Shown one piece after another: positions 5,325-51,127 of a stretch of DNA of 64,000 nt. The stretch is from a virus (taxonomy: Duplodnaviria > Caudoviricetes): the IMG/VR virus record IMGVR_UViG_3300032038_000011, positions 32,001 to 96,000 of that record, one strand, 5' to 3'. The first letter of the stretch is position 1; each line of letters opens with the position of its first letter. Position numbers and translations under genes: made by a program. The notes below the pieces were generated by a model that was given only the letters and a program-made list of their open reading frames with translations, was not told the DNA's origin and ran no database searches.

Positions 5325-5338
5325 TATTATACCCTCCT

Positions 5339-17146: not shown

Positions 17147-17166
17147 AATAAATATATTCCTTTCTA

Positions 17167-25006: not shown

Positions 25007-25035
25007 TTGACTTCTTGCGTGGTCTGTGCTATACT
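25007..25035 (+). promoter_or_regulatory. sigma-A-type promoter (representative of the cassette promoters)
   Basis: TTGACT-N17-TATACT with extended TG; -35 lies 10 bp from the core site, as in most units. Confidence 0.85.
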
Positions 25036-25065
25036 TATATCATCAAATGAAAGGAGATTTCAGAT

Positions 25066-25281: not shown

Positions 25282-25282
25282 T

Positions 25283-25663: not shown

Positions 25664-26357
25664 TTAGTGGAATTTTAACGGATATTTTGGGATATATTCT
25701 GTTTACAAGTTTTATTTTTTGTTTCTTTGGCGGCTGTGTTTACCTAATTATATATGGTGTTCGGCAATATTTAGAAGAAGAAGATGGGTTCTTTATTTTC
25801 GCAACTGTTATAGGATGTGTTGGCGCTATGATTGTTATAATTATCGTCTTAAAAGCTTTTGGACTATAATTGGAGGATATGTAATATGAAGAAAATTAGT
25901 TATAATGATGCTGCTTATATTTGCCGCTACAAAGAAAAGCATTTTTTTGAGAAGTATTTTTGTAATCATTATATTTGGATGAATAATCCAAATGAAGGAA
26001 TAATAAAAAAAGATATGAAAATTTGGTTTTATATCTTAACATTTATTCCTATCTGTATTCTTCAATTTATTTGTCTCTTGTGGGATGGTGGTATAAAGCA
26101 TTTTGAGATTCCTTCTATTAACATAATGGCTTATAACGTCACCGGACTAACTTCTGATAATGATGATACCACTATGTTTGGTAGGTTTAAGCAAGTATAT
26201 AATAAATAGCGGCAAAACCGCTATTTTTTTAATTATATGTAAATTAGATGTCACGTGTAATCTAATTCACGCAATTTTAACTTGACTATTCTAACTTTAT
26301 ATGTTATACTTATTTCAACAGATGAAGGAAAACATCTCAAACCAGAAAGGCATTAGA

Positions 26358-27008
26358 ATGTTTAAGTATGAGTGGGAAATTCAGGAAGCAAACAAAGAGT
26401 ATCTCGAACAGAGACAAATGTGCTTGGATGCTTATCAATCCATAGCAGAATGGGTTGGAGAAAAAGAAATTCAAACCGAAGTTAAAGGCACTGATGAAAA
26501 TATGTGCCGTTATATAGCCTTTGGTGACGTTGAACCGGAAATAGACGGTTACGAAAAAGGAATACTTTCAATTAATGCTCGTGTAGCTATTAAAAAGTAT
26601 TATACTTTTATCGAAGGTCAAGGTTATATACGGACGAAAGAATCTAATTTCATTGACCGTAGCGATCGCGACAAGTTCGAGAAAAATAATATTGAATATC
26701 CTAAAACTTGCGGTCTTTACATGATAGGGCAGACGTTTGTTAATCCTATCACTAATGAAAAGTTTTATTGGATTAAGGTTGGAGAAGCGCAAAATCTGGC
26801 ACGTCGTAGACATGATTACAATTCTATGACCGCTATGATTTGGGATATTGGATATTATACTAAAGATGATTTGACTGAATCTGAATGTCACGATAAATTG
26901 AAAGATATTGCCCTTCATCGTCATGCGGACGAATGGTTTTCTGTATCGCGCGAAAACTATTTGAAAATTTGCGAACAGGGCTTTGAATGGTTCAAAGAGG
27001 ATGAATAA
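26358..27008 (+). CDS. protein with C-terminal T5orf172/GIY-YIG-like domain
   Basis: GLYMIG...IKVGEAQNLARR...E..CH..L....DEWF; start reassigned after the CCAGAAAGG leader. Confidence 0.65.
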   Translation: MFKYEWEIQEANKEYLEQRQMCLDAYQSIAEWVGEKEIQTEVKGTDENMCRYIAFGDVEPEIDGYEKGILSINARVAIKKYYTFIEGQGYIRTKESNFIDRSDRDKFEKNNIEYPKTCGLYMIGQTFVNPITNEKFYWIKVGEAQNLARRRHDYNSMTAMIWDIGYYTKDDLTESECHDKLKDIALHRHADEWFSVSRENYLKICEQGFEWFKEDE

Positions 27009-27089
27009 TCCTCTTTTTTAATTTAGTGTAAATTAGACTATACGTATTGTTTAATTTACATTCGCTTAAAATTAAGGCGCTTTCGCGCC

Positions 27090-27269
27090 TTAATCTTTCA
27101 TTTCCTGAATATCTTCATCCCTTGTGTAAACAAGAACTTCCGTCCATCCCCAAGTTTTATTGCATTTAGGGCAAGTTCCATAACCAATATCATAATATGC
27201 GTGATTATGGTATTCGGTATCTACTACATCCTCAAAAGTAACTGTTTCGCCGCAATTAGGACATTTCAA
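27090..27269 (-). CDS. small zinc-ribbon protein (not in ORF track)
   Basis: TTG start, MKCPNCGETV...GTCPKCNKTW...EMKD*, 59 aa; paralog of the adjacent gene. Confidence 0.6.
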   Translation of the reverse strand: MKCPNCGETVTFEDVVDTEYHNHAYYDIGYGTCPKCNKTWGWTEVLVYTRDEDIQEMKD

Positions 27270-27270
27270 A

Positions 27271-27459
27271 TTAATCGACTTCCTTTATATCAGTTTCGTC
27301 ACTATAGATATAATTGACTTCATTCTGATAGGTACGTCCGCAAGTGGGACAGTGCCAAGTGTTGAATTGCGTCATAGTGGATGAACCACCAAAGTCCTGA
27401 TAGGTTTCAATCTCAACAAGCTCAAGTTCAGTATCGCAATGAGGGCAAATGTAATCCAT
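27271..27459 (-). CDS. small zinc-ribbon protein
   Basis: CPHC...CPTC. Confidence 0.65.
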   Translation of the reverse strand: MDYICPHCDTELELVEIETYQDFGGSSTMTQFNTWHCPTCGRTYQNEVNYIYSDETDIKEVD

Positions 27460-28036
27460 AATTATATATATTCCTTTCTTAAATTTTAGCTATTCTATAA
27501 TCGGGGCAATCTTGTTTATGTAATTTACATAAACGGTTATATGCTTCTTCATAAGAAGGCCAAGCCCATTTATAATTATCATCCGCTGGCGTCCAAAAAC
27601 TTCCACACATATCAACCCAAAGGATTTGAATTTGATACATAAAATTGCTCCCCTTTCGTTTTCTTGAATATATTATAGCATGAGATGGAATGAAAGTCAA
27701 GTTAATTTTCTGATATTTTCTATTTTTTCTTCAATCTGATATGAAACATATAGTTCTTTTTCAGAACGTATTTTCTTAATATATGCTTCTGCCTCGTCTT
27801 TGGTGTCAAAAGTTGCTATCAAAGTGTAAGTATCGCGGAAACCTTGACCGCCATAAACAACCTTATACACATGGTAATACATATCGGCTATAATTCTCAT
27901 TGACTTTCTCCTTTGCTTTTCTTGAATATAGTATATCATAGAAATACTTTGAAGTCAAGTTAATTATTAATTAATTAAAATGTACGTACCATTTAATTTA
28001 CATTTGCTTAAAAAGAAAAGGGCTTACGCCCTTTTC

Positions 28037-28438
28037 TTAACAGTGAGGACAATGAAGGCAATCATCACGGCATCCATAACAATAATCATCATCATCATAG
28101 TCATCATCATAGTCATCATCATCGTCGTCCTCGTCGTCCCAATCGTCGTCCTCGTCCTCGTCGTCATCCCAATAATCCTCGTCCTCGTCATAATCGACGG
28201 TCAGAAGGTCAGGATTCAGAGGACAACCATTGAGATTAACCATATAGCCCTCGTCATTTGCCGCGTCAATCGCGGAAATGATGTCGGTCAGAAGGCGGTC
28301 AGAATCAGCCTTGCGGGAATTGCGAATCGCATCATCCACCGCGTCACGCAGGGCAACCAGGGTCTTGATAGGCATATCAGTCAGAACCACGCCGCCGTTG
28401 ATGGAAGTGCCGCACTTGATGTTAGAGTTCATATTCAT
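28037..28438 (-). CDS. protein with very acidic C-terminal tract and Cys-rich end
   Basis: About 35-residue D/E-rich run followed by CYGCRDDCLHCPHC. Confidence 0.7.
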   Translation of the reverse strand: MNMNSNIKCGTSINGGVVLTDMPIKTLVALRDAVDDAIRNSRKADSDRLLTDIISAIDAANDEGYMVNLNGCPLNPDLLTVDYDEDEDYWDDDEDEDDDWDDEDDDDDDYDDDYDDDDYCYGCRDDCLHCPHC

Positions 28439-28826
28439 ATTGAATCCTTTCTCACTTGGGTTTGTTAAGTGTTTTCCTTCACTTGATGTTATTATTATAT
28501 CAGATGGAGTGGAGTTTGTCAAGTTAAGAGTTTGTTACTGTCTGCTTACCCACGCGGTAAGCATATCTACCGCGCAGCCAAAACCAACTGGAATTGCCCA
28601 TACCGCCCAATGATGGGGAACTTTACCCATCGTCCAAAGAATGAACACAATCGCACCAGTTACCTTAAACAAATTGATGTTTCTTGCTTGCATCTTAAAT
28701 TTCCTTTGGTTTGAAGTGTTGTCCTTCACTTGATGTATATATTATAGCATGGGTTTGGCTATTTGTCAAATTAAGAGTTGGTAAATTAAAATTGACGTAT
28801 GCTTTAATTAAATAGCACTTAACGTG

Positions 28827-29255
28827 CTACTTAATAAAGGTATCAATATCTGTTACTATTCGCGCGGAAACATAATGTTTCTTACAAGTTAAGGTTTCAT
28901 AGAAAGCCATATCTTTTTCATAGTTCTTATCAAAATCTAATATGGCATTCATGTTAGCTTGTATGGGATTAATATTGTATCTAAACTCCAAACGATTACG
29001 CCATGCTTTTGCGTTCTGTTCGGGAATGAGAAGTTCAAATTCAATATTCTGCTCCATAAGTCGGTTAATAACTGCTTGATGCGCGGAAATAAAGACATTG
29101 TATCCCGCAACACTAAGGTTATGAGCTAAAGCAACATAAAGATATTCCCATTTGTCTTTCTTGACAAAGTTAGAAGAATCTAAATCTATGGTAGTGTCAG
29201 GATTGTTACGACAATAGGTAGACTTTCCACAACCTTGATAGCCACAATAAATCAT
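28827..29255 (-). CDS. small P-loop kinase-like protein
   Basis: GYQGCGKST Walker A followed by IDLDSS. Confidence 0.7.
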   Translation of the reverse strand: MIYCGYQGCGKSTYCRNNPDTTIDLDSSNFVKKDKWEYLYVALAHNLSVAGYNVFISAHQAVINRLMEQNIEFELLIPEQNAKAWRNRLEFRYNINPIQANMNAILDFDKNYEKDMAFYETLTCKKHYVSARIVTDIDTFIK

Positions 29256-29373
29256 ACAATATCGCCCCTTTCATTATCTATTATACACATTTAGGGGCAA
29301 ATTGTCAAGTTAAACTTATGTAAATTAGAATCTACGTTAGGTGTAATTTACATAAACTTAAAAAGAAGGAGGA

Positions 29374-29733
29374 TTACTCCTCCTCCTTCTCCTTGGCTTC
29401 CTTTTCGGCCTTGGCCTTGGCCTTTTCGCGCTTGGCCTTGTCCTTAGCGGCCTTTTCGGCACGCTCGGCGGCCTTCGCGGCCTTCTTAGCCTGCTTGTCC
29501 TCATAGTCCGCAATCTCAGCGGCCATGAGTTCGGCGGCGGTCATGTCCTCGCGTTCCTCGGCCACGATGACGCCGATGCGGGCGTAGCGTTCCACGCCGT
29601 TGGAATCGGTCACAAGGCAACCGTACTGGCGGTCGTTAATCTTGTGAATACCTTCGACCTCGGAAATGTGCAGGGTGTTGAAGATAACGGTGCGGATGTT
29701 GGAATCGACAAGAGCCTTAGAAATCTTCGCCAT
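29374..29733 (-). CDS. protein with Lys/Ala-rich tail (paralog family)
   Basis: KKAAKAAERAEKAAKDKAK tail; similar to 34020-34322 and 34840-35295. Confidence 0.7.
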   Translation of the reverse strand: MAKISKALVDSNIRTVIFNTLHISEVEGIHKINDRQYGCLVTDSNGVERYARIGVIVAEEREDMTAAELMAAEIADYEDKQAKKAAKAAERAEKAAKDKAKREKAKAKAEKEAKEKEEE

Positions 29734-29826
29734 AGTAGGAAAATCCTTTCTGGTTTTTTAGTGTTTTCCTTCACTTGATGTATTCATTATAGCACGTTGT
29801 GTGCCTAATGTCAAGTTAAAAGTTTG

Positions 29827-29903
29827 TTACAAGAGCGTGGGTCTTACTGCGAATTTCGCGTAGCGCTCCGCGGTTATCGGCTTACTGCCCTCGCCCTTGG
29901 AAC
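29827..29903 (-). ncRNA. candidate ~75-nt structured RNA
   Basis: Own promoter and no ORF; closing stem CAAGGGCG/CGCTCTTG plus GGG/CCC; CAGTAAG occurs twice. Confidence 0.45.
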
Positions 29904-30018
29904 AATTATATTATAGCAGAAAATCCCACATAAGTCAAGTTAAAACATAGTAAATTACATTTGACGTTCTATCTAATTTACACTTGCTTAACAAGAAAAG
30001 ACCCTTGCGGGTCTTAAC

Positions 30019-31038
30019 TTAATATTTACAATCCAGTCCGGCATATTCGGCAAGCCGCCTCATGCGATTGACTAATCCTACGCAATAGGTAGACAAGGCT
30101 TTTTCCTGCTCTGCTGCTTCATCCTGTTTTGCGTCAACATAGCAAGCCATAGCATAATAAACGGTTTCACATTCGCGCTTGTCTGCCTTTTTCCTTCTCA
30201 TACAAAATTCATCAGTAGCGCCCAAGTCACGAAAAGGGAAAAACTTAATGCCTGGCGTTATGGCGTGGCGCTGTGCTATCTTGTGAAGTATGTAAGATTC
30301 AATGATAGCATCGTCAAGCGCGGTATGGCTTTCTTCAAAGTCGTATACATCGCAAAGGTATCTAAAAGTCGATTCGGCGGAAGTTTTGAAAAATGTTCCC
30401 GAATTAGTCAAAAGGCCATTTTCCAAACACTTGTTTTTATAGTTCACATTGTTTAACAAATGCGTTGTGGCAAGTCCCCACAAATCAAACATGGAATAAG
30501 TGTTGCCACGAAAACGAAAAATTTCCGCTTCAAAGTCGGGGTTACGCTGGTTTTTTTCGCCTTCCGCAATTCGCGCCGCACTTGCGCGTTGTATCTGTTC
30601 CCATTCATTATAGTTAGGACTATACAATTCCCGAATGTAAAGTTCAGTAAAAGGAATAGCCTTTTTGAAGTCGAACATTGCGTTAAATGCGCCGATTCCA
30701 TCCACCGAGGACATATCAGAAATGAAAATTTCCATAACTTCATCCCACGGTTTTATGCTGGTTTCGCCCTCTTTAAGCATATTAAGGTAAATCGGGCGTT
30801 TTTCCGCATAATACGCGGTATTGAAAATGGCAGGAACGGCGAAAGTTTCCGCAATCAGAAATTGCTTGCGCTCATAGATATTTCCTGCGCGGTCACAGAT
30901 AGTCCAGCCAATGTCATAAATCAAAGGTTTGGCAATGGCTATGCGCTTTTTGCGCTCAGGGTCGCCATTTGTGATTTCATCCGCAAAGGGCAAAGTTGCC
31001 GTTTCCGTATCGACTACCATAAATTTCAATTTCTTCAT
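30019..31038 (-). CDS. DEDDh 3'-5' exonuclease
   Basis: VVDTETA, AFNAMFD and HTALDDAIIE motifs. Confidence 0.85.
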   Translation of the reverse strand: MKKLKFMVVDTETATLPFADEITNGDPERKKRIAIAKPLIYDIGWTICDRAGNIYERKQFLIAETFAVPAIFNTAYYAEKRPIYLNMLKEGETSIKPWDEVMEIFISDMSSVDGIGAFNAMFDFKKAIPFTELYIRELYSPNYNEWEQIQRASAARIAEGEKNQRNPDFEAEIFRFRGNTYSMFDLWGLATTHLLNNVNYKNKCLENGLLTNSGTFFKTSAESTFRYLCDVYDFEESHTALDDAIIESYILHKIAQRHAITPGIKFFPFRDLGATDEFCMRRKKADKRECETVYYAMACYVDAKQDEAAEQEKALSTYCVGLVNRMRRLAEYAGLDCKY

Positions 31039-31189
31039 AAAAAGCCCTTTCTGGTTTGTCGTTGTTTTCCTTCAACTGTAAGTATATTATAGCACACCCA
31101 CCGTAGAATTGCAAGTTAAACTTTTGTAAATTAGACCTAACGTTCTATCTAATTTACATTAGCTTAAAAAAGAAATTAACCCTTGCGGG

Positions 31190-32236
31190 TTAATTCTTTT
31201 CGCGGATTGAATTAAGATGCTGCTGGTATTCCTTTTTGAAATTCTTTGCCGCTTCGTCCTTCGGCGTTGAATTACCAAAGGCAAGATACTGATAAATAAG
31301 ACCGTTGTTAGTAACTTCACAAGTTATATAAGACTTATCGGGGTCGTTTTTAAGGCGAACGGTTACAACGTGGGTATGGCCTTTATAAACCTTTTCCATA
31401 TACAGACGTTCAACGCAATTCCTTTGCGCTTCGCCCTCTTTGTGGAAATCCTCTTTTGTCAACAAGGGCTTGACAACAAAAGTATCATTTTCATAATAAA
31501 GCCATTCTTTATCATTATACTTTGCCAGTTCTTCGTTATAATGCGCATCCCTATATTCTTTTTCAAGATATTTAAGAACGGCATATTTAGTCAAAAAGTT
31601 CTTTTCGACTTCTACTTTACCAAACATTTTCATAGAAGTCTTGTAATACCAAGCTAACATATCCCTAATATAGCTTGCCTGATTATAACCTTCATACATT
31701 GCTTCCATGTGTTCACTAATAACACGATTCAAAGCAGTTTTAATATAATCAACAGGGAAATCAGCATTAAGCAAGGAAGAAAAAACTTCTTTCGCCCAAT
31801 CAGGCAAAGTATTAACGTACTGTTCATACTGTATCATGATAAGATACTTGTTAATTCTATAAGCATCATAATAATCATTGCAGTTTTCCTTAACATAATC
31901 TACAACCTTTTTAGTAAGGTTAAGTTTATTGTTAAGAGTTTCGGGTTCACTCGGAAACAGGCCCAAGCTCAAAAGCTGCTCAAAACGCGCGCCCTTTTCT
32001 TCATTATAAGCGGGGTCGTAAGAATGGGTAAACCTATTGCGATACCAATAAATGGCATAGCCCAACAAACCTTCCCTACGCCAAGTGGGCAAATTGTTAA
32101 AGGTAAAACACTTGGGAACACCCCTGACAGGCTTGCCAGACTTGCCGATAAACTGCCCGGTGGTAATATCCCACGCGCCGACCTTCAAAGAGCAATCATA
32201 AGCTACGATAAAATTACGTTCCTTAACAAAATTCAT
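31190..32236 (-). CDS. PcfJ-like domain protein
   Basis: C-terminal EGEAQRNCV..Y...YITCEV...Q....N motif. Confidence 0.7.
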   Translation of the reverse strand: MNFVKERNFIVAYDCSLKVGAWDITTGQFIGKSGKPVRGVPKCFTFNNLPTWRREGLLGYAIYWYRNRFTHSYDPAYNEEKGARFEQLLSLGLFPSEPETLNNKLNLTKKVVDYVKENCNDYYDAYRINKYLIMIQYEQYVNTLPDWAKEVFSSLLNADFPVDYIKTALNRVISEHMEAMYEGYNQASYIRDMLAWYYKTSMKMFGKVEVEKNFLTKYAVLKYLEKEYRDAHYNEELAKYNDKEWLYYENDTFVVKPLLTKEDFHKEGEAQRNCVERLYMEKVYKGHTHVVTVRLKNDPDKSYITCEVTNNGLIYQYLAFGNSTPKDEAAKNFKKEYQQHLNSIREKN

Positions 32237-32404
32237 TCTTAATCCCTTTCTGGTTTGTGTTGTTTTCCTTCAACTTTGTGAGTATATTATACACCCGATA
32301 TGGCTATTTGTCAATGCTTTTTTGTGTTAAGTATATATAAATTACACTATACGTTTAGTCTAATTAACATTCGCTAAAAGAAAAGCGCCCCGAAGGGCGC
32401 TGGA

Positions 32405-32749
32405 TTAGGTGCGGCGGGAGTAGGTGTTATTGCCGCCATTATCGGGGCGATGAACCTCAACCTCGTCCTGCCAGAGGTTAAGCATACCATACCGCATCTT
32501 GCTTGCGGTGAAGGTGTCGGGCATATCGGCACTGACGGCATCCCAAAGGTCCTTCACGGTCATCGGCTTGTCCCACGCGGCGCAAGCCATCAGGGCATCG
32601 TGCGCGGCGTTATACAGTTCAGTATTAGCCCGCGACTTTGCGGTGGTACGCTCCCACTCGGCGTTGACTTCATCACGAAGCACAGACAGGTCAACAGTGT
32701 TGTCGCCGTTCAGGTAGTTCTTCATCATCTCAAGAGTAGACTTCTTCAT
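32405..32749 (-). CDS. putative winged-helix protein
   Basis: KPMTVKDLW...TASKMRY pattern; own promoter and terminator. Confidence 0.5.
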   Translation of the reverse strand: MKKSTLEMMKNYLNGDNTVDLSVLRDEVNAEWERTTAKSRANTELYNAAHDALMACAAWDKPMTVKDLWDAVSADMPDTFTASKMRYGMLNLWQDEVEVHRPDNGGNNTYSRRT

Positions 32750-32841
32750 AGGGCATTAATTCCTTTCTCGTTTGTAGGGTGTCGTTCCCTTTGATGTATT
32801 TATTATAGCACTGATTGGCTATAATGTTAAGTTAAGAGTTC

Positions 32842-32959
32842 GTTAAAGGGGTTCGTGCGTTCCTCAAGGTTTAACCTTGCTTCTCTGTTTAACAGAGTGA
32901 CATACTATTGCGACTTTCAACCGCCGCCCCACGGGTCTGTGGCTCAGAACCCCTTTAAC
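32842..32959 (-). ncRNA. candidate 118-nt multibranched RNA
   Basis: Perfect 13-bp closing stem GTTAAAGGGGTTC/GAACCCCTTTAAC, four internal hairpins, directly downstream of TTGACA-N17-TATAAT. Confidence 0.6.
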
Positions 32960-33070
32960 ATCTTTATTATACCACGATTTCCAAACTTTGTCAAGTTAAG
33001 ATTTCGTGACGCCGTTTTTACGTGGGCTTTCTTATTAAAGTAGCACACCACTACAGGCAGCGGCCCTGTC

Positions 33071-33113
33071 TGGTGAGGGTGGCGGGAATCGAACCCGCGG
33101 TACCTTCGCCCTC
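33071..33113 (-). ncRNA. 43-nt tRNA minihelix (acceptor stem, T arm and CCA; no D or anticodon arm)
   Basis: GAGGGCG-AAGGTACC-GCGGG-TTCGATT-CCCGC-CACCCTC-A-CCA; promoter at 33125-33153. Confidence 0.6.
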
Positions 33114-33187
33114 TTGACAGTAACAGTATATCAAAAATTGAACTAAAAGTCAAGTAATTTTTATGTAAACTAAAATGTACGTGCGAT

Positions 33188-33610
33188 TTAATTAACAAAT
33201 AATTTATCAAATGAATAATCCTTAAAATATTTAGAATTATTATTTTGATTATTTAACGGTTCTCTAATTCTTAATCTAATTTGCTTTTTATCTCCAATAT
33301 CTTCTATTGGAACAATTGCGATTAAATCATAAGTTTGATTTACAAAAACGAAATAATCTACCTCTCCAATATAAGTAGATAAGTTTTTATTTGTGGTATG
33401 ATTTGTAGAACTACGAGTATAACAACAAATAGCACCATTTTGTTCTTCATTACAAGTTTTAACTTGTATTCTATTGAATTTACCATTAAATTCTGCTATC
33501 ATATCATAGCGTTCATTATCTCCCCAAGGAATACAAACAGGAATATTATATTTTTGAAATTCATATAGTGCTTTTGCTTCCGATAATTGGCCTTTTGTTT
33601 TAGTATTCAT
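33188..33610 (-). CDS. PD-(D/E)XK endonuclease, I-Ssp6803I-like (group I intron-associated family)
   Basis: G..SE.KA......IPWGDNERYDMI.......RIQVKT and Y...VDYF motifs. Confidence 0.8.
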   Translation of the reverse strand: MNTKTKGQLSEAKALYEFQKYNIPVCIPWGDNERYDMIAEFNGKFNRIQVKTCNEEQNGAICCYTRSSTNHTTNKNLSTYIGEVDYFVFVNQTYDLIAIVPIEDIGDKKQIRLRIREPLNNQNNNSKYFKDYSFDKLFVN

Positions 33611-33693
33611 ATTATCACTCCTATGATAAATAAAATTAAGGGCTGGCGTAGGAGCGCCTTATCTCATTAGTCGCGAACTAATGCTACCCCTGA

Positions 33694-33768
33694 TGGTGGG
33701 GATAGTGGGAGTCGGACCCACCGTACCGAAATTAAAAGTTTCGTGCCATACCGCTTGGCTATATCCCC
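33694..33768 (-). tRNA. tRNA-Lys(UUU), atypical
   Basis: Full 75-nt cloverleaf GGGGATA/TATCCCC, anticodon loop CTTTTAA, encoded CCA; T-loop TCCGACT is non-canonical. Confidence 0.8.
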
Positions 33769-34019
33769 ATACCACTTGGCTACACCCTCATAAGTTTTGG
33801 GAGTTCCTTTCCTCTCCCTCAACTGTAATTATTATAGCAGAATTAGAATGAAATGTCAAGTATTGGGATAGTTAAGATTTGGAAAATTAGAAATTACGGG
33901 ATTTCTAATTAAAATGAAATTAACAGAAAAAAGTATTGACAAGGAAATGAAATTCTGCTATAATAATAACTGTCAAGAGGACAAGGAAAAGTCCTAAAAA
34001 CCAGAAAGGATTTCAACTT

Positions 34020-34322
34020 ATGGCTATGACTGCTGCTGAAATGAAGGCTACTGCTCGTCAGGCAACTATCGCGGCTATTATGCCGTCCCTCCAGGAAAAC
34101 AACGCAATTAAGTTTGCGGACGGTTCCTTCGCTATCCTTCAGAATGTTGAAGGTCAGGATATTTGGACGGAAGTAACCGTCAAGTCCAAGGCTTACAAGG
34201 ATACCAAGGTATCCAAGGCGTTCAATCCGCGCGAAGCGGCGCAGGCGTGGGAAGCCGAACGTCAGATTAAGGCAGATAATAAGGCTGCCAAAGAAGCCGA
34301 AAAGGCGGCGAAGAAGGCGTAA
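34020..34322 (+). CDS. Lys/Ala-tail paralog, inverted relative to its neighbours
   Basis: 100-aa ORF with own promoter and leader, between sites 33881 and 34343. Confidence 0.75.
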   Translation: MAMTAAEMKATARQATIAAIMPSLQENNAIKFADGSFAILQNVEGQDIWTEVTVKSKAYKDTKVSKAFNPREAAQAWEAERQIKADNKAAKEAEKAAKKA

Positions 34323-34839
34323 GCCTTCTTCTTTTAATTTATTGTAAATTAGGTTGAACGTATAATATAATTTACATATAGTTAAAATAATAAGGATTAA
34401 ATCCTTATTATCATTCTTTCTTTTTCTTTACTATAACGATAAGATTTTACTTCTTTATATTTAAGTTTGTCAGGAATTTCACTAACTAAACCAACGTATA
34501 AAGCGCGACTGGTGTTAGGGTTCCAAATAATTACACGATTAACAATAACTTTGGTTTGTGCTGCGCGGATTAATCCTGCTACAATCATTATTTATCTCCT
34601 TTCATAGCTTCACGACAAATCTGCTTCCCTTCTTTACGTTCTTGTTTTTTATTTTTCTTCTTTGCGGGCATCACAGAAGGGCGATAGCCACACCAAGTTT
34701 CACGGTTCTGATTTTTCTTTTCCATTATATTCCCTCTCTTTCTATAAATAGTATATACTATTTTCTTCAATAAGTCAAGTTAATTATTTGTAATATAGAT
34801 TAAACGTACAGTGTAATTAACATAGAAATAAAGTGACGG

Positions 34840-35295
34840 TTAAACCGTCACTTCGTGGGGCAGGAACTGATTGTTATCGTCTTTTTCTTCTTCTTCAGGG
34901 TCAGGTGCGTGAATCATAGCCTGAAGCCCTTCGGTGTTGAGTTTCTTAATCGTCTTTTTCGCGGCGCGCTTGCGCTCCTTTTCTGCTGCTTCGCGCTCGG
35001 CCTTTTCCTTGCGCTTTGCTGCTTTGTCAGCCTTATCGGCCTTGACAAGTTCCCATTCATCATGGGCTGCGTAACCGTCATAGGCATCATAACCGCCGTC
35101 ACCATTGCGGGAGCCGCGCGGAATAGATACCTTAATCAGCGCAAACTTTTCATTGCCTTCGGCATCGACAACAGGCATAGCGAGTTCGCTTGCGCTAACA
35201 TCCATCACATCAGCGTCGTAGTGTTCAGACAGAGCGGCGGTCAGAACGGCAAGAACATCATTGCGAATCGCGGTTTCCAGTGCTGCTTGTGTCAT
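34840..35295 (-). CDS. Lys/Ala-tail paralog
   Basis: 151-aa ORF with the conserved leader. Confidence 0.75.
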   Translation of the reverse strand: MTQAALETAIRNDVLAVLTAALSEHYDADVMDVSASELAMPVVDAEGNEKFALIKVSIPRGSRNGDGGYDAYDGYAAHDEWELVKADKADKAAKRKEKAEREAAEKERKRAAKKTIKKLNTEGLQAMIHAPDPEEEEKDDNNQFLPHEVTV

Positions 35296-35558
35296 AGCAT
35301 TTCCTTTCTGGTTTAGTGTTGTCCTTCACTTTGTAGGTATATTATAGCAGATTTGAGAGGAGAAGTCAAGTTAAATAATTGTTACGATAATTGCGGAAAC
35401 AATCAAAATGTCAACGGCAAGAACCAAATAGATAAACATTTTGTTTCTCCTTTCATTTTCTATAAATATTATAGCATAAATTCTGTTGCTTGTCAAGTAA
35501 ATTTTTTGTTAAATACATACGACGTATAATTTAATTAACTTGAAATTAAAAAAGGCGG

Positions 35559-35999
35559 TTATCCCGTCTTTATCATTTGTGAAAGAATTTCAAAAATCTT
35601 TTCCGGTTCATAAGCTCCATTTCCCCACGCTGTGCGGTTTCTTTCTTCATCATCAAAAAGAATCCCGCCGCCTGTTACTGTGAGTTTATTTGTGCCATAA
35701 CGTTCAATTTTAATATAATCAAAATTAACGGAAGGCAAATGTTTTGCTAACCAGTAAAATTTTGCGATACTGATTTTAACCAAAAAATCGTCCGAGCCGT
35801 GTTTAGAACCCCATGAAATAATACCGATTTCATGGCCTTGGGTTTGTAGTTTGTTAAGATAACGAGCAAGCAAACTCATGTTAATAAGAGGTTTTGCCGC
35901 ATTATAAGGCGTGGTATCTTCATTTTGAAGATAATTCAACCAACCTTCAACGCCGTAAAAATCCGCAATAGTTCCATCCATATCCAACCAAATCTTCAT
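35559..35999 (-). CDS. HAD-superfamily 5'(3')-nucleotidase-like protein
   Basis: DMDGTIADF motif I and ILFDD motif IV. Confidence 0.8.
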   Translation of the reverse strand: MKIWLDMDGTIADFYGVEGWLNYLQNEDTTPYNAAKPLINMSLLARYLNKLQTQGHEIGIISWGSKHGSDDFLVKISIAKFYWLAKHLPSVNFDYIKIERYGTNKLTVTGGGILFDDEERNRTAWGNGAYEPEKIFEILSQMIKTG

Positions 36000-36117
36000 A
36001 ACACAAAACCCCTCTCATTTGATGTATTAAGTATAACATATATGGATTAAGAAGTCAAGTTAAATGTTTGTTATTTAGATTGGACGTTTAACCTAATTTA
36101 CATATAATTAAAGTGGA

Positions 36118-36489
36118 TTATTCATCCACTTTAACCCATTCCATTGTGCGTGTATCATATCTAAACAGACCGACCGCGCAACTAAAATCTTCATTATATA
36201 TACATGCGCTGATATTTTCACGAATAAACTCTGTTTCATCATCTGTGAAACTACCATTTCTTCGACAAAAGACACAACAACCATAGGCATCATCAAGCCA
36301 TTTTATCCAATCTTCAACATCAGGAGAAGAGCCAGGAGGAAGAATTTCTTCCATATTTTTATCATAGAAAGAAATTTTATTAGCAATACTTAATGCTAAA
36401 CCATAACCGATATTTTCATACTGTATACACGCATGGTAGTTATCAAATTCTTTATCATCATAAGCATAATACATAGTAACCTCGCGCAT
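36118..36489 (-). CDS. hypothetical single-gene cassette
   Basis: 123-aa ORF between sites 36069 and 36559 with own promoter. Confidence 0.65.
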   Translation of the reverse strand: MREVTMYYAYDDKEFDNYHACIQYENIGYGLALSIANKISFYDKNMEEILPPGSSPDVEDWIKWLDDAYGCCVFCRRNGSFTDDETEFIRENISACIYNEDFSCAVGLFRYDTRTMEWVKVDE

Positions 36490-37755
36490 AATTTATATCC
36501 TCTTTCATTTGATGTATATATTATATGCCATTTAGAATAAAATGTCAAGTTAAAATATTATTATATAAAAGAGACGTATAGTTTAATTAACATTTATATA
36601 ATAAAAAACGCGGTTATTGTTCCGCGTTATAGAATACCAGTAAATCAATAGCATTATTGATTTCAGTTATTGCTTTATTAAGACTTCGCTTGGCTTCGGT
36701 TTCGTAATGTCCCGCGTCTTGCGTTATAATATCATCAATAGTCATATCACAATAGTCTCGTGCGCGAATAAGAAGTTCAATATCATATTTCATATTATTT
36801 ATTCTCCTTCCATTTTTCATATACTCTTACAAGTTGGTCTGCTGTAGCTAAAAGAGAATAGACATCTATTGCGTCTTGACTATTACCTTCAAAATCACTT
36901 GACAGCTCATTTTCCAGCTGATATAGTGTACGAATAGTAGCTTTCAGCTTTTCCAGCTGTTCAGTAGTAAGTTTCTTCATATCCAGCTCCAGCTCCTCTC
37001 TTTTTTCTATATATATTATACCAGCTTCCAGCTCAGAAGTCAAGTTAATAATAGGTTAAGTTCAGCTAAAATTAGGTAGCACTAACAGACCCGATACACG
37101 GGCCGCTTTACTTAATTTTAACAGCATCTTAACCAAAAATCAATCACTCCTTAACACAGTCATAACAATTCACCTTCTTTCCTATAATATTCCACCATTA
37201 TTAATTATACCAAATTTCGCAAGGGTTGTCAAGTTAAATGTTCGTAAATTAGAGTAGCCGGATAGTCTAATTTACATTAGCTTAAAAAAGAATAGGCCAT
37301 TGGCCTATTCCCAATCTTCATCAAAATTTAACATTTCCAAATCTTCATCGAAGAAGAGTTCCATGGCCTCTTCAAGTTCCTTAACGCCATCTTCATCAAA
37401 GATGTGGTTAATTCTGTCCATGTCGCGGGCCATGTGGTAAATCATGCGCCATGCGGTCTTAATGTTCTTTTTACGTCCATCTCTGAACCAATAGTCGTCG
37501 GCGTCAAAGTCCCACATGTTGATTTCAAACATGCCATTGTCGTAAATGTAACCATAAACCAAAACGTGGCGAATCTGAATCTGGAAAAACATTGTAAAAT
37601 CTCCTCTCATGTTGTCGTTATTGTTGAACCGTTTTTTATTTTATTATACCACAAAAAAATGATTTGTCAATAGTTTTTCTATGTTAAAATTACGTATATT
37701 AGAATATCCGGATATTCTAATTAACATAAAAATAAAAGAAGGCAGGCGCCTTCTT

Positions 37756-37938
37756 TTAATCCTCATAGGTGTCAGTGCCTGCCTGCCGGATTGCCCACCG
37801 CTTTGCGCCGGCGATAGTTTTGAATCCTTTGCCAAGTCGCCAGCCCCAAGTACCACCTTCACCAACGTGATACTTGCCATCAGGCATCGGGGTGTCATCC
37901 CAAGTATAGTAATGTTCGCGATTGCCGACTGTGTTCAT
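37756..37938 (-). CDS. small protein, paralog of 43610-43804
   Basis: HYYT.D..P..DGKYHVGEG...KT..GAK.WA shared. Confidence 0.7.
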   Translation of the reverse strand: MNTVGNREHYYTWDDTPMPDGKYHVGEGGTWGWRLGKGFKTIAGAKRWAIRQAGTDTYED

Positions 37939-38061
37939 GTGAGTTACCTCCTTCATTTGATGATTTATTATAACATGGATAGGGGTATATTGTCAAGTTA
38001 AAAGTGCGTAAATTAGATGATACGTATCTTCTAATTTACATATAGTCAACATAAAAGGGGA

Positions 38062-38280
38062 TTAACCCCTTATATGTTGCGAATTGAAAGCGGCAACAAT
38101 CTCCCGAATTGTGTCGTTTTCGTTAAGAAGCGCCAAAGTACAAAATACAACTTCGGGGTTCTCGATGTAAATGATATACGCGCCCAAAGCGGCGTTAAAG
38201 TCGTTTGTATATTCTACTTTGACTTCTTCTTCTTTGGTGTACATGGTAACAAACTTGGTGGTAATGCTGTACTTTTTCAT
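38062..38280 (-). CDS. hypothetical single-gene cassette
   Basis: Between sites 38007 and 38349, with promoter and RBS. Confidence 0.65.
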   Translation of the reverse strand: MKKYSITTKFVTMYTKEEEVKVEYTNDFNAALGAYIIYIENPEVVFCTLALLNENDTIREIVAAFNSQHIRG

Positions 38281-38400
38281 GGTATTAACTCCCTTCATTT
38301 GATGATTTATTATAGCATGAATTGACGCAGTTTGTCAAGTTAATTGTGCGTAAATTAGATAGTACGGTTATTCTAATTTACATGGAATTAAAAGAAGGGA

Positions 38401-38625
38401 TTAAATCCCCTCTTTGAAAGTCGTGACTTCGATATACATGAAATTTGCTTCGTTGGTATCGGGGTCACGATAGTAAATAACTGTAACTGTGTCACCATAA
38501 TCAAATCCTTCACACAGGTAGCCACAAATCGAAAGACGATTCATAGCAGCGGCGATAGCATGGTTCATGGTATCGCGGGCGGCGATGATTTCACTGTTCT
38601 CATGGATAACGAAAATGCTCTTCAT
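38401..38625 (-). CDS. hypothetical single-gene cassette, paralog of 39113-39361
   Basis: Shared M..AI..A and F.YG...T.I.Y pattern. Confidence 0.65.
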   Translation of the reverse strand: MKSIFVIHENSEIIAARDTMNHAIAAAMNRLSICGYLCEGFDYGDTVTVIYYRDPDTNEANFMYIEVTTFKEGI

Positions 38626-38763
38626 AGGTTTATACCCCCTTCATTTGATGGATATATTATACCATTTTTCAGTGTTAAAAAACAAGCAATTGGAAGTTAA
38701 ACGTTAGTAAATTAGAATCTACGTTTATTCTAATTTACATATACTTAATAAAGAAGTGGAGGA

Positions 38764-38982
38764 TTAATCCTCCACGTAAAATCGCGGGTAGCGACCGACC
38801 TCGCTGTTATTACAGTTATAATAACAAAATTCGTTGTAGAAATTGTTAAAATTGCGGAACATCCAACCGGGTTTCATGTGGACAGCGAATTGCGAATCAG
38901 GACGCATATTCGCGGGTACAATGATGAACGGCTTTTTTTGTTCGTAGAGTTTACGGGCCTGCACTTTGTTAATCTGTTTCAT
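38764..38982 (-). CDS. hypothetical single-gene cassette
   Basis: Between sites 38706 and 39051; GGAGG RBS. Confidence 0.65.
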   Translation of the reverse strand: MKQINKVQARKLYEQKKPFIIVPANMRPDSQFAVHMKPGWMFRNFNNFYNEFCYYNCNNSEVGRYPRFYVED

Positions 38983-39112
38983 GGGATTGCCTCCTCTCAA
39001 TTTCTGTATATATTATAATACATAAAAAGCTATATGTCAAGTTAAACATTTGTAAATTAGACTGGCCGTATAGTCTAATTTACATACAGATAATAAAATG
39101 GGCTTGCGCCCA

Positions 39113-39361
39113 TTAGGTTTCAAGTTCGGCTTCGGTGATAACAATTGTGCCGGTTTCGGTTGTGCTTTCAGAGTACAAGCGCGGGACAAAGACTTTGTAT
39201 TCGATGGTAGTGTAGCCTTCGCCATAGGCGAAGTCAGTTACTTCATAGTTGGCATGGTGCGCGTATTGGATAGCGTTTTTGATGGCGCTGTCCATATCTT
39301 TGCAGATGACAACAACATCGGCCTCGCGGTTATCATAGACGACATACAGGAACTTACTCAT
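39113..39361 (-). CDS. hypothetical single-gene cassette
   Basis: Between sites 39051 and 39439; GGAGG RBS. Confidence 0.65.
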   Translation of the reverse strand: MSKFLYVVYDNREADVVVICKDMDSAIKNAIQYAHHANYEVTDFAYGEGYTTIEYKVFVPRLYSESTTETGTIVITEAELET

Positions 39362-39949
39362 GGTAGTTACCTCCTTCATTTGATGTCTTATTATACCATT
39401 TTCAATGTTAAGAAGTAAGCATGATATGATTAAACGTTTGTAAATTAGATTCTACGGTTACTCTAATTTACATTGGTATAATAAAAGCCGCGCGGTTAGC
39501 TACTCCGCGCGGTTGGCTCGTTCGCGGTCAGTGCGCCACTTCTGCCGCGGGTCAGTTCACTTACGTTACGCGGGATTATGCTACAACTGCCACGTTGCAC
39601 ATTGTCCCTTGCTCTAATAGGGTGGATTCATTGTCAAGCACCTCAAACACTATTGCAGGACATTTAATGACGATGGAGGAACGGCTGACTACTGCGGTGG
39701 CTCGTTCATTCTTTATCTCCCCTTTCGACAAGTCTATTATAACATGAGATATGGGATGTGTCAAGTTAAACGTTTGTTAATTAGATAATTTGTTTTGGGA
39801 AATGAAATAGGATTTTATTTGTAAATAATATGTTAATTTTGGGAAAAGAAATATAAAATGAAATTGGAAAAAGTTAAAGGAAAGTAAAATAAAATTGACG
39901 TTGAGTGTAATTTACATAATATTAAAATGAAATTGCGGTTTCCCGCAAT

Positions 39950-40258
39950 TTACCATGTACACATTACTTTTAACATTCCATTGTCTATTTTAATTACGGT
40001 CGAAAAACCAAGTTCTTCTAATTCTGATTTTAGACCTATTTTCAAATAATTTTGTGATTCTTCTGAAACAAGTCCCATACACAGCAGATTAAAATCATCG
40101 GCTGCGCTTTGATAGCCGGCATTAGCTGCGGCAAAATTTGCTTCGTTCATTTTATATAATACCGCAGGAACAAAATCGTTTTTAATACGATTGTATTCGG
40201 CAAGACGAGCATCAGAGGAAACCTTGCGAAGAGTAGCGGCATTGTAGATAGGCGTCAT
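39950..40258 (-). CDS. hypothetical single-gene cassette
   Basis: Between sites 39883 and 40329; AA..GY...LEELGF..W resembles the 21899-22404 proteins. Confidence 0.6.
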   Translation of the reverse strand: MTPIYNAATLRKVSSDARLAEYNRIKNDFVPAVLYKMNEANFAAANAGYQSAADDFNLLCMGLVSEESQNYLKIGLKSELEELGFSTVIKIDNGMLKVMCTW

Positions 40259-40392
40259 ATTTATAATCTCCTTTGCTTTTCTTGTATATAGTATATCATA
40301 TATATAAAAGGGCGTCAAGTTAAATGATTATTAATTAGACTATACGTTCAATGTAATTTACAGAAAAGCAAAATAAAACGCGGTTGCCCGCG

Positions 40393-40656
40393 TTAAGGTT
40401 TCTTTGTACAAAGAATAACTTTGGAGTAGTGAGTGAGATATGTAATACCGTTCATTGTAAACTGAACGACATCAGATTCGTCAAAGTCGCGCCATGACGT
40501 TACTGTGCCTTCAATAAGTTCGCCGTTGCCGAGTTCAAGAATTGCGTGGGTAAAAGTCTGGGTTGTGTCCCAACCAACTTGGCGATTGCCAACTCGGCAA
40601 GCAGTCAGCGCGAGAGCAAGGGAGAGAATGAGAACCACACAAATAATCTTCTTCAT
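40393..40656 (-). CDS. putative lipoprotein
   Basis: Signal peptide with lipobox LTAC. Confidence 0.7.
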   Translation of the reverse strand: MKKIICVVLILSLALALTACRVGNRQVGWDTTQTFTHAILELGNGELIEGTVTSWRDFDESDVVQFTMNGITYLTHYSKVILCTKKP

Positions 40657-40837
40657 TTTGGGATACCGTTCCTTTCTTTTTTCTTGAATTTATTATAGCA
40701 TAATTATTTTGAAATGTCAAGTTAAAAGGTTGTTAAATAGAATTGACGTTTGATGTAATTTACAATTGTTTAACTTGACATTTCGGGATTGCTATGTTAT
40801 AATGATTACAGAAATTAAGAGAGCGAGGTAATTTGAA

Positions 40838-41026
40838 ATGAAAAGAAAGTGCTACGTTGTTGAAATGAACTCCGCGCTGGATGGTCTGTTTGAACAGTTG
40901 GATGATTACGGTTTTGATTATGAATGTGAAGAGCATTGGCCCGCGCCCGGTTATATAGAAATTTACGTGCTGTATTATCCTCATGAGATTCGGGACTTGG
41001 AAAATATTTTCGCGCCGTATGTTTAA
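40838..41026 (+). CDS. small acidic protein, inverted single-gene cassette
   Basis: Between sites 40731 and 41050, with promoter TTGACA at 40775. Confidence 0.7.
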   Translation: MKRKCYVVEMNSALDGLFEQLDDYGFDYECEEHWPAPGYIEIYVLYYPHEIRDLENIFAPYV

Positions 41027-41777
41027 CATACGGTTTTATTTTGAAATTATGTTAATTAGAGGATACGTAGTATCTAATTTACATTGAATTAAAATTATGG
41101 GATACATCAAAAGATGTATCCCTGCATCATTTCATCAAATTCTGAAAATGAAATGCCGTTTTCGTCGGGGTCAAGAATGTTCGCCTGATAGTCCCAATAA
41201 ATACGCACCTGTTCCTCAGAAGTCAGATTTTCCCACTCCATACGGGATACCTCGCTTTCGTTTGTTTGCAAGATTATTATAGCAAAAATAAAATGAAATG
41301 TCAAGTTAAATGATTATTAATTAGATTATACGTGCGGTCTAATTAACAGGAATTTAAAATAAAATTGCGAAACTTTTTATGTTTCGCAATTTGAAATTGA
41401 AATTAAGGAATTAATATTTCCTTAACATCCCATTTCATTCCCGTGCAATGCGTGCGCCAATTTGCCGCATTTTGTGCCTCTTCGCGCGTGCGATAGTAGG
41501 AAGAACCTTGAAAACCACCACAATAGATTGCATACACTGTCATTTTAGGAAAATCCCCTTTCGTTTGTTTCTGAAATTATTATATCATTTTTGAAATGAA
41601 ATGTCAAGTTATTTTTATGTAAAATAGAACTTACGTTTAATATAATTTACATAAATTTAATTTGGGTTAGTTTTGGGATTGTCTAAATATTGTCATAATA
41701 AAAACTTTAAAAAGGGTTTGATTTTGAAATTAGTTTATGATATAATATATATAGAAAAGCAAGGGAGGTTTTGGGAT

Positions 41778-41957
41778 ATGCGCGCGAAAGACTATAAGAA
41801 AAGGAATAGTTTTTCATATAAAATTAAAATGTGGTTTTATCGGCTGACTTTTCGGGATGTTATGTCTACCAGTAAAATTGTTATTATTTCTATAATAAAT
41901 TTTATAATGGCGGTTTTAGGATTCTTAATCCTCTTTTTTGGCCCGTCATTTCTTTAA
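41778..41957 (+). CDS. small membrane protein, inverted cassette
   Basis: GGGAGG RBS, hydrophobic C-terminus; between sites 41618 and 41995. Confidence 0.55.
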   Translation: MRAKDYKKRNSFSYKIKMWFYRLTFRDVMSTSKIVIISIINFIMAVLGFLILFFGPSFL

Positions 41958-42055
41958 GAAAATGAAATGAAATTAGGGTGTGAGGTTTCGGGAATGTAAA
42001 TTATATCATACGTATTTTATAATTAACAAAAATAAAATAAAATAAAAGGTTGGAA

Positions 42056-42355
42056 TTACTTCCAACCTTCCATATATCCTGCGTATCGAATCATAACAAT
42101 TTCATCATCGTAAATGGTAGGCGTGTCACGTTCTTCCATTATCGCGGCGACAATATCACCGCAGTCGAAATCTTCGATTCCTTGCCATATCCATTCATTG
42201 CCATTGAAGTCTACGAGAACCATAAAGTTCTGTTCGTAGTTAATTAAGTCAACTACGAAAGCTTGAGGATACTGTTCTGCGCTGGCACAAGCCACAATTC
42301 CCATAAAGATAGCACAAGCAACAACGATACACCAAACAATAACAAACTTCTTCAT
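42056..42355 (-). CDS. putative exported protein
   Basis: Signal peptide ending ASA; between sites 41995 and 42424. Confidence 0.65.
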   Translation of the reverse strand: MKKFVIVWCIVVACAIFMGIVACASAEQYPQAFVVDLINYEQNFMVLVDFNGNEWIWQGIEDFDCGDIVAAIMEERDTPTIYDDEIVMIRYAGYMEGWK

Positions 42356-42473
42356 ACTATATACTCCCTTCATTTGATGGTATAAGTATAACATATATAT
42401 AGTATGATGTCAAGTTAAACTACTGTAAATTAGATAATACGTTTACTCTAATTAACATAGAGTTATCGCGGAT

Positions 42474-42713
42474 TTAACCTCCGCGATAATTTGGATGAAC
42501 TCGTTCGTATGCACTAACTTTTCTAAAACTGTTATATTCTTGTTGCGTTATCTCTTTGCCGAATATAACCATTTTAGTGTGCTTAACACTTGGCATTTTT
42601 CGCGCTTTGTCGCAAGCCTCAAGCAAATTATTTGCTTTGAAAACAAACTTAATTTCAGTGCTTCGACCTGTTCCGCAATGTCCACGATGACAAACGACTT
42701 CAAAGTATTTCAT
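42474..42713 (-). CDS. hypothetical single-gene cassette
   Basis: 79-aa basic ORF between sites 42424 and 42784. Confidence 0.65.
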   Translation of the reverse strand: MKYFEVVCHRGHCGTGRSTEIKFVFKANNLLEACDKARKMPSVKHTKMVIFGKEITQQEYNSFRKVSAYERVHPNYRGG

Positions 42714-43307
42714 GGTTGTTACTCCCTTCTTTTATTCTGGTTATATTATAACATAGTTCTTGACCTTTGTCAAGTTATGTTTATGTTAATTAGGTTGGAC
42801 GTTTAATGTAATTTACATTAGCTTAATTTCCAGTTCCAGCTTTCCAGCTCCATATAAATGTTAAGTTTATGTTAAAGTTTCCAGCTCCAATGTTAATTTT
42901 ATGTTAATTAGAATGCGGCTTCCAGCTCTCAGTTCCAGCTCCCAGCTCGCGGCCGCGCCGGAGCCGAGGAACTTCCAGCTCCACGCAAATTTCCAGCTCC
43001 CCACCGGCACGCCGACCGGAGCCGAGGCAGGCCAAGGGCGCCCGCGCGAACCGAGCAAATTTACGCATAATTCATATTCTCTTAACATAGCTTTAACAAA
43101 CCTCGCTTCTGAGGGCATATTCCCCCATCCTCTATATTATAGCAGATAAATGTTAATTGTCAAGGTAGTTTATGTTAAAAGTATGTGAATTAGATTAAAT
43201 TTAACAAAGTTAAGCTGACGTAAATTAGACTGCCCGGATAGTCTAATTTACACAGGCTTAATGTTAGTGGTGACTAACTACTATGTTAAAAAAAAGAAAA
43301 GAGGGCG

Positions 43308-51116: not shown

Positions 51117-51127
51117 GGAGAATAATT

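Follow-up and report, generated by a model that had tools for sequence, protein, structure and literature searches.

Does a palindrome that recurs at most gene junctions of a phage early region belong to the promoters beside it, or does it mark the boundaries of cassettes that are exchanged and turned around? This question is raised by a stretch of 64,000 nt (the window, to which positions refer unless another frame is named), which covers positions 32,001 to 96,000 of the IMG/VR virus record IMGVR_UViG_3300032038_000011 (Caudoviricetes), a linear record of 136,935 bp estimated to be ~80% complete. Between its left and right arms lies an 18-kb block of ~45 small genes, here called the early-gene array, most of which have their own consensus sigma-70-type promoter, a conserved leader and a terminator. 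A preliminary description of this DNA had noticed that a repeated site accompanies the strand switches of the array and had favoured cassette boundaries over simple operators. Here, we present the anatomy of the site, its placement relative to promoters and its fate in related genomes, which together point to an element that is both phased to promoters and shared as a boundary between units.

The core of the site is a 32-mer, GTAAATTAGA-N5-CG-N5-TCTAATTTAC, and a conserved TTAA box six bases outside each arm extends it to a full element of 52 bp, TTAA-N6-GTAAATTAGA-N4-(A/C)CG(T/G)-N4-TCTAATTTAC-N6-TTAA. A weight-matrix scan of the whole genome (136,935 bp) returned 34 sites of 21 to 47.5 bits, all within positions 24964-43251 and none elsewhere; in a control, 20 shuffles yielded 0-3 matches that passed the 6-bit cut-off for listing, the best of them at 15.1 bits. 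Each half-site has either a promoter-type flank (AGTTAA...) or a terminator-type flank (TTTTAA...AT). In the six genomes compared, namely that of the window (G000) and five relatives, the central CG is invariant in 182 of 182 distinct sites and the central tetramer covaries between ACGT and CCGG (0.80 observed, 0.59 expected), while mirror positions of the spacers are complementary no more often than base composition predicts. Because the spacers show no covariation, the CG is invariant and the centre covaries, the palindrome points to a symmetric putative protein-binding site rather than to an RNA or DNA hairpin; a hairpin or cruciform was rejected for want of excess complementarity in the spacers, and a tRNA was the sole match in an Rfam scan. 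The central tetramer is mostly CCGG in one relative (G005) and ACGT in another (G001), and the window has both as well as the hybrids CCGT and ACGG.

The element is all but absent from bacterial genomes. When one genome for each of 185,579 prokaryote species was scanned with a degenerate site pattern, a single match was obtained, on a 2.2-kb contig (L016:537-568) binned into an Acetobacter metagenome-assembled genome and probably a misbinned phage fragment. A common host operator was rejected on this count, and the near-absence of the site from prokaryote genomes suggests that the binding factor is probably phage-encoded.

The arrangement of sites at the junctions is regular (Table 1). As the preliminary description had stated, every strand switch coincides with a site, and each of the four convergent and three divergent junctions carries exactly one. 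The convergent sites, which it had characterized as full sites with gene ends only on both sides, indeed stand without a promoter between two gene 3' ends and score 44.3 bits (27028), 38.9 bits (34344), 39.8 bits (41051) and 34.8 bits (41996); intrinsic terminators flank 27028 and 41051, like 34344, on both sides. Cryptic promoters at these sites were considered and rejected: 10-of-12 matches occur inside 34344 and 41996, but they are within normal site variation, would serve no gene and, in the case of 41996, are not conserved in the related genomes G003 and G004. The -35 boxes on both sides of divergent site 40732 were likewise found at the distance given earlier, since a gap of 11 bp counted from the 32-mer corresponds to 10 bp counted from the 34-mer used there. 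Approximately three quarters of the array gene junctions carry a site, so that a site at every strand switch is weak evidence on its own; the informative fact is the presence of full sites at promoterless junctions.

Table 1 Sites, promoters and transcription units of the early-gene array and its surroundings (window positions; a dot marks features without strand).
Feature	Positions	Strand	Remarks
Early-gene array	24964..43251	.	32-bp palindrome in 34 copies (52 bp when the outer TTAA boxes are included); ~45 small genes
Left-arm promoters 4687, 16405, 17754, 21527, 22852, 24884	4659..24884	-	all TTGACT-17-TATAAT, no site, no TTAAC box
Convergent site, no promoter	27028..27059	.	boundary of left plus-strand block and minus-strand block
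Array promoter without full site	28494..28540	-	keeps GTTAA-N6-TGTTAC, the promoter-proximal half of the distant relatives' variant site
Divergent site	33882..33913	.	two promoters, each 22 bp away (-35 boxes 33859-, 33936+); weakest site, 21 bits
Lone plus-strand unit	33914..34343	+	gene 34020-34319, 100-aa protein, Lys/Ala-rich tail
Convergent site, no promoter, terminators on both sides	34344..34375	.	
Full site in tandem context without adjacent promoter	39884..39915	.	decayed second copy and promoter 39764 follow, 119 bp away
Divergent site	40732..40763	.	two consensus promoters, each 11 bp from the 32-mer: TGTCAA 40715-40720, TTGACA 40775-40780
Lone plus-strand unit	40764..41050	+	gene 40838-41023, acidic 62-aa protein
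Convergent site, no promoter	41051..41082	.	arms and central CG kept in relatives, spacers diverge
Divergent site	41619..41650	.	minus-strand promoter 11 bp away; the plus-strand unit's own weaker promoter 67 bp away
Lone plus-strand unit	41651..41995	+	gene 41778-41954, 59-aa membrane protein
Convergent site, no promoter, right-side terminator only	41996..42027	.	inner TATAAT (-10-like) not conserved in G003/G004
Last array site	43220..43251	.	degenerate half-site between 43220 and promoter 43163; G003 has two full tandem sites here

Where promoters are present, their distance from the site is quantised. Counted over the six genomes, 124 of the gaps that separate the 32-mer from the -35 hexamer measure 11 bp, 24 measure 22-23 bp and one measures 33 bp, and intermediate lengths are almost absent. 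If transcription starts, as is usual, 7 nt past the -10 element, the dyad lies at about -62.5, -73.5 or -84.5 and hence at whole helical turns. Of the 34 sites in the window's array, 26 are accompanied, on one side or both, by a strong promoter whose distance is exactly 11 or 22-23 bp, and at two more an extended -10 promoter occupies the position typical of the 22-bp class; behind the strong sites 38707 and 39440, the promoter has no -35 box and consists of an extended -10 element only. Upstream positions such as those of the dyad are the geometry for contact of a factor with the alpha subunit of RNA polymerase, as in classic class I (CAP-type) activation, and the 11, 22-23 and 33 bp gaps agree with the corresponding spacing (centre at about -61.5, -71.5 or -82.5, integral turns). 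The strict helical phasing ties the sites to transcription, and a factor bound in this phase would face the polymerase. The earlier claim that sites and promoters are decoupled therefore stands only for the six sites of the window that have no promoter in phase and is overstated for the remainder. The observation behind that claim, good left-arm promoters without a site, was borne out for six promoters, and a TTAAC box precedes every -35 box within the array, where most promoters are perfect TTGACA-17-TGnTATAAT. Some array promoters also lack a full site (29814, 32830 and 35369, besides that in Table 1), and several of these carry the proximal half of a variant site found in distant relatives.

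The same architecture was recovered from many viral and metagenome contigs by exact-pattern and protein searches. The five relatives compared in detail carry 43 (G003), 30, 9, 35 and 33 sites, and in the two that are complete (184 kb with terminal repeats, and 181 kb) every site lies inside the array. One junction rule holds in all six genomes: tandem junctions read promoter-site-terminator, divergent junctions have one common site and convergent junctions one promoterless site. At the site homologous to convergent 41051, the flanks have diverged together with the spacers around the retained arms and CG. Either selection maintains these copies or gene conversion homogenises them. In more distant relatives (181 and 169 kb; L028:700-5100 and L029:1-4700) the site takes the form GTTAA-N6-TGTTAAC, a GC-rich CCGG core and GTTAACA-N6-TTAA; the outer TTAA boxes, the abutment on the -35 box and the CCGG centre are retained while the arms differ (TGTTAAC). 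Different arms within the same architecture are expected if the site and its binder co-evolve.

Comparison of relatives also revealed exchange of whole units. In G003, which is ~90% identical, the unit 26271-27027 is missing and one chimeric site replaces both 26239 and 27028, and the unit 39084-39439 is swapped for ten units, with both breaks inside sites. Of 31 ends of homology blocks, 10 lie no more than 35 bp from the centre of a site, against 4.1 expected (p = 0.005), and in a second count the figure is 9 of 21, against 2.7 expected (p = 7e-4), a two- to three-fold enrichment; indel ends in repeated motifs are also the hallmark of the promoter-early stem-loop (PeSL) cassettes of other phages. 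Three gene families occur on opposite strands in different relatives, and the unit 33914-34343 is placed in the left plus-strand block in G005 and G001. A further difference concerns positions 33103-33767, with site 33165, a PD-(D/E)XK (PDDEXK_5) endonuclease gene (33188-33610) and a tRNA-Lys(UUU) (33694-33768); all but the last base or so of this stretch is missing from G003, and it looks like a mobile endonuclease/tRNA insertion.

The number of sites at strand switches is telling in its own right. If each unit owned an upstream operator, divergent junctions would have two sites and convergent junctions none; one site at either kind of junction is predicted if units invert or insert at sites. 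If 40748-41066 were turned around between the centres of its two sites, two canonical promoter/terminator sites would result, because each half-site has one or the other type of flank. These observations support sites as shared unit boundaries whatever the orientation of the units. To this extent the earlier preference for cassette boundaries over simple operators is upheld, by the shared boundaries, the breaks inside sites, the opposite orientations among relatives and the conserved arms and CG of convergent sites; the phasing to promoters and the lack of signs of active flipping count against it.

The preliminary description had gone further and remarked that the layout at 40732 is the one expected if the unit 40748-41066 had been inverted about the central CG, and constant orientation of the three lone plus-strand units across relatives and reads was named as a refuting result. 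For relatives, this is the result obtained for all three. For the 40838 unit, 7 loci from IMG/VR and 24 from metagenomes (sets that overlap, as they contain some contigs in common) agree in their arrangement at 63-97% amino acid identity: promoters lie 11 bp away on both sides of the left-hand site (22 bp on one side in two loci), and the right-hand site, in all loci where one was detected, has no promoter. The arrangement of the 41778 unit is likewise constant over 8 loci, and the 34020 unit lies on the same strand in every relative (G003, G002, G005 and G001). Thus, no orientation polymorphism of the lone units was found in related contigs, of which the assemblies show the majority form only, and active flipping, of which there is no sign, is unsupported rather than disproved.

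The rival explanations differ in what they make of the centre, the phasing and the promoterless copies. Active site-specific recombination of the integron, shufflon or invertase kind would have a recombinase, from an undescribed family or the host, cut at the central CG of the 52-bp palindromes and invert, excise and insert cassettes during infection, so that populations vary within themselves. The size and layout of the element (inverted arms, an invariant palindromic central dinucleotide, flanking boxes) are those of a crossover site, a single divergent site paired with a promoterless convergent one is the exact leftover of a centre-to-centre flip, several indel ends map inside the 32-mer, and cassettes vary in position and orientation between relatives. 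We nevertheless consider such shuffling very improbable: neither Resolvase (PF00239) nor Phage_integrase (PF00589) was matched in the six genomes, including the two complete relatives, the orientation of the lone units and the types of site that flank them do not vary among the related contigs found, breaks in homology mostly fall elsewhere than in sites, and the phasing of 11, 22 and 33 bp to the -35 box would be left unexplained. An integron would in addition have a tyrosine recombinase (IntI) next to promoterless cassettes under a common promoter Pc, whereas PF00589 is absent here and almost all of the units come with a consensus promoter, a leader and a terminator of their own; an invertase switch would have an invertase gene and both orientations, neither of which was seen in the six records or the related contigs. 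Were shuffling to occur after all, a widespread phage group would possess integron-like insertion, excision and inversion of self-expressed early genes, and read-level evidence is needed before a flipping-cassette reading is adopted.

The other rivals assign the site to transcription or to no protein at all. An injected or host factor could act as an upstream activator or enhancer that recruits RNA polymerase via the alpha C-terminal domain, the promoterless copies being leftovers that gene conversion keeps uniform. The classic class I positions of the dyad, the promoters at 38707 and 39440 with nothing but an extended -10 element, and the common symmetric site of divergent promoters all agree with this idea, which we still regard as unlikely, as the near-perfect array promoters should need no activation, equally strong left-arm promoters do without sites, a host activator is hard to reconcile with a site essentially missing from bacterial genomes, and promoterless sites score as high as promoter-linked ones with arms and CG conserved. 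Somewhat less likely again is that the site is primarily an insulator, at which a bound protein halts read-through between units and backs the terminators, although this would explain a site after every terminator. The terminator T-run merges with the outer TTAA box, the half on this side is the better conserved, all convergent junctions of the six genomes have a site, and stoperators set a precedent for many elongation-blocking repressor sites across a phage genome (PMC9283540). On the other hand, good intrinsic terminators are already present at nearly all junctions, a roadblock would work at any helical phase relative to the following -35 box, and stoperators are asymmetric and orientation-dependent while the array sites are symmetric. 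Finally, the palindrome might need no dedicated protein and be the conserved core of a duplicated promoter-terminator cassette, UP-like and kept uniform by frequent recombination. It is A/T-rich, it is placed where UP elements lie, and the PeSL motifs of T4-type phages need no known binding protein (PMC2839356). Dyad symmetry, the invariant CG and the covarying ACGT/CCGG centre are not UP-element features, full sites persist without a promoter, and arms vary between lineages while the architecture is constant, all of which leaves this explanation with only a slim chance.

The reading that we favour, and hold to be probable by a modest measure, is that a regulator site borders every transcription unit and serves passively, in a PeSL-like manner, as homology for recombination. 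From the observed anatomy, phasing, conservation and recombination pattern we infer the following steps. A putative dimeric or tetrameric factor, probably encoded by the phage, would bind the ~52-bp symmetric element, one of which stands between every pair of early transcription units. On the promoter side, where the outer TTAA box either directly adjoins the -35 hexamer or is set back by one or two further helical turns, the bound factor would meet RNA polymerase from about -62.5, -73.5 or -84.5. Its most likely job would be global shut-off or tuning of early genes, which we favour over activation because the promoters are already near-perfect consensus. A comparable case may be protein p4 of phi29, which reportedly represses the strong early promoter A2c via the polymerase alpha subunit (Monsalve et al. 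1996, as cited in PMC11806353). With the same geometry, p4 activates the weak late promoter A3. A further role might be the insulation of units from their neighbours, and the copies at terminator ends and convergent junctions might be insulators or cooperative-binding partners; the better-conserved terminator-side half hints that the terminator side matters. As the symmetric and best-conserved repeat of the array, the element would at the same time offer a patch of homology in both orientations, and general recombination between elements would add, delete, replace and rarely invert promoter-gene-terminator units, with one common site at divergent and one promoterless site at convergent junctions as the outcome. 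The three lone plus-strand units would then be old, fixed recombination products and not switches. Breaks that fall largely outside sites, no recombinase and a fixed orientation argue for general recombination between short repeats rather than for a dedicated recombinase.

Several points weigh against a regulator site used in this way. Six full sites of the window (27028, 34344, 41051, 41996, 39884 and 43220) have no promoter in phase and are as strong as the rest, so that a pure promoter operator is insufficient; their conservation may reflect insulation, looping, cooperative binding or copies that evolve in concert through gene conversion. Of the two halves of the site, the one towards the terminator is the better conserved, which a simple operator would not lead one to expect. 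About two thirds of the homology breakpoints lie outside sites, in promoters, leaders and genes. The sign of the effect, repression as opposed to activation, is pure inference. Furthermore, Pfam and PHROG scans, which covered about 125 open reading frames (ORFs) in sets of 86 from the window, 43 from the array and 40 further ORFs, returned no repressor-type domain.

The sole helix-turn-helix in these scans is the C-terminal domain of a free-standing GIY-YIG homing endonuclease at L066:10427-11263 (genome 125327-126163); a second GIY-YIG protein was detected by Pfam among the ORFs outside the window. The PD-(D/E)XK endonuclease encoded at 33188-33610 was rejected as the binder, as G003 is without the gene-bearing stretch and yet has 43 sites. 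The zinc-ribbon protein encoded at 25066-25278 shows a weak match to phrog_1305 ('DNA binding protein', E = 9e-5). A candidate lead is the product of 34020-34319, which has relatives in >360 metagenome protein clusters (74-99% identity among the best 120 listed), is far more conserved than its neighbours and ends in a Lys/Ala-rich C-terminal helix. Its AlphaFold2 model (pLDDT 72) gave HU proteins as the top Foldseek rows, weakly (E = 0.3-0.5), and a best VIA-align Z of 4.5 to unrelated folds, from which we draw no conclusion; a profile search against PDB sequences gave no match. BLASTP detected no similarity among the Lys/Ala-tailed proteins 29374, 34020 and 34840.

The array is set in a genome of ~33% GC without close relatives among 50,697 phage records (megablast). 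No portal protein in the phage collection exceeds 31% identity to the one encoded here; the best belongs to an unannotated faecal phage record, and those of 130-140-kb Enterococcus phages reach 29%. The left arm (positions 1-24,600, minus strand) encodes nucleic-acid enzymes, with an RNA ligase, a polynucleotide kinase, a helicase-like protein and a protein of 2,329 amino acids, and the right arm (45,500-64,000, plus strand) a sigma-like protein, terminase, portal and structural genes. Between the left-arm promoter 24884 and the first site at 24964, short direct repeats GGTACCATAG / GTACCATAG / GCTACCATAC occupy 24890-24950. The leaders of the array genes are of two types. In approximately nine units a short hairpin with a AAGGAAAA-type loop is followed by AAACCAGAAAGG just before the start codon (hairpin leaders at 26310-26357, 28440-28500, 29735-29790, 31040-31090, 32240-32290, 32750-32805, 33965-34019 and 35296-35345), and the remaining units have the common leader CATCAAATGAAGGAG. 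Beyond the last site, a minus-strand operon of five genes at 43300-45300 has 55-60% GC, against ~33% for the genome; nearly identical GAGGGCTTGCGCCCTC hairpins stand between its genes, and ~300 nt of GC-rich untranslated sequence lie at 45000-45300. A single ORF of 4,661 amino acids follows just past the right end of the window (L065:103-14088; genome ~96000-110000).

Among known systems, the integron attC, shufflon sfx and Hin/Gin hix/gix sites resemble the element in that inverted repeats bound cassettes or invertible segments, and serine invertases cross over at a central dinucleotide; the array differs by having no integrase or invertase gene, self-promoted cassettes, no visible orientation polymorphism and promoter-phased sites. 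The p4 sites of phi29 are also widely spaced inverted repeats upstream of the -35 box, but they are few, unrelated in sequence and not known to have promoterless copies or a role as cassette boundaries, and no p4-like protein was identified among the phage proteins scanned. Palindromic operators repeated 12-18 times and bound by one global regulator are exemplified by the KorB OB sites of the IncP plasmid RK2 and the conserved inverted repeats of phiC31, with a ParB-type protein and the phiC31 repressor, respectively, as binders. Some of these sites abut a -35 box and others lie far from promoters; at 13-17 bp they are shorter than the array element and are not known to occur once per gene unit. 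The stoperators of cluster A mycobacteriophages (L5, Bxb1), which are 13-bp asymmetric sites bound by the monomeric immunity repressor of a temperate phage (PMC9283540), share with the array dozens of copies of one site in intergenic spaces, many not at promoters, and are under one genome-wide regulator. Stoperators are orientation-dependent and lie inside transcription units, whereas the array sites are symmetric, 32-52 bp long, restricted to the early array and placed between a terminator and the next promoter; domain scans detected neither a repressor nor a lysogeny module.

The nearest parallel is with the PeSL cassettes of T4-type phages, which recombine by short homology (Arbiol et al. 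2010, PMC2839356; Comeau et al. 2014, PMC4122927). These also form hyperplastic regions of small orphan genes, flanked by a composite of terminator and strong sigma-70-type early promoter such as the one that flanks the small orphan genes of the array, and motif-motif recombination without any known dedicated recombinase accounts for insertions, deletions and replacements between close relatives. Minicircles, formed when neighbouring motifs recombine, are a further trait of such cassettes. The array, which belongs to an unrelated low-GC phage, adds a perfect-dyad element of 32-52 bp with an invariant CG between terminator and promoter, in helical phase with the -35 box; this element also stands without a promoter, and inversions are part of the pattern. 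The structure is thus real, conserved and unusual in form, a combination of PeSL-type cassettes with the site arrays of global regulators and not a demonstrated shuffling machine. It suggests that an abundant, uncultured phage lineage, present in many metagenome contigs, arranges its variable early genes with one symmetric putative protein-binding element per junction, which is both phased to promoters and a marker of unit exchange. Identification of the binder would reveal a new global regulator of early transcription in phages, one whose composite operator is unusually large. The array would also be a natural source of parts that act as promoters, insulators and boundaries. The PeSL idea, in which regulatory motifs serve as handles for recombination, is extended beyond T4-type phages, with inversion added.

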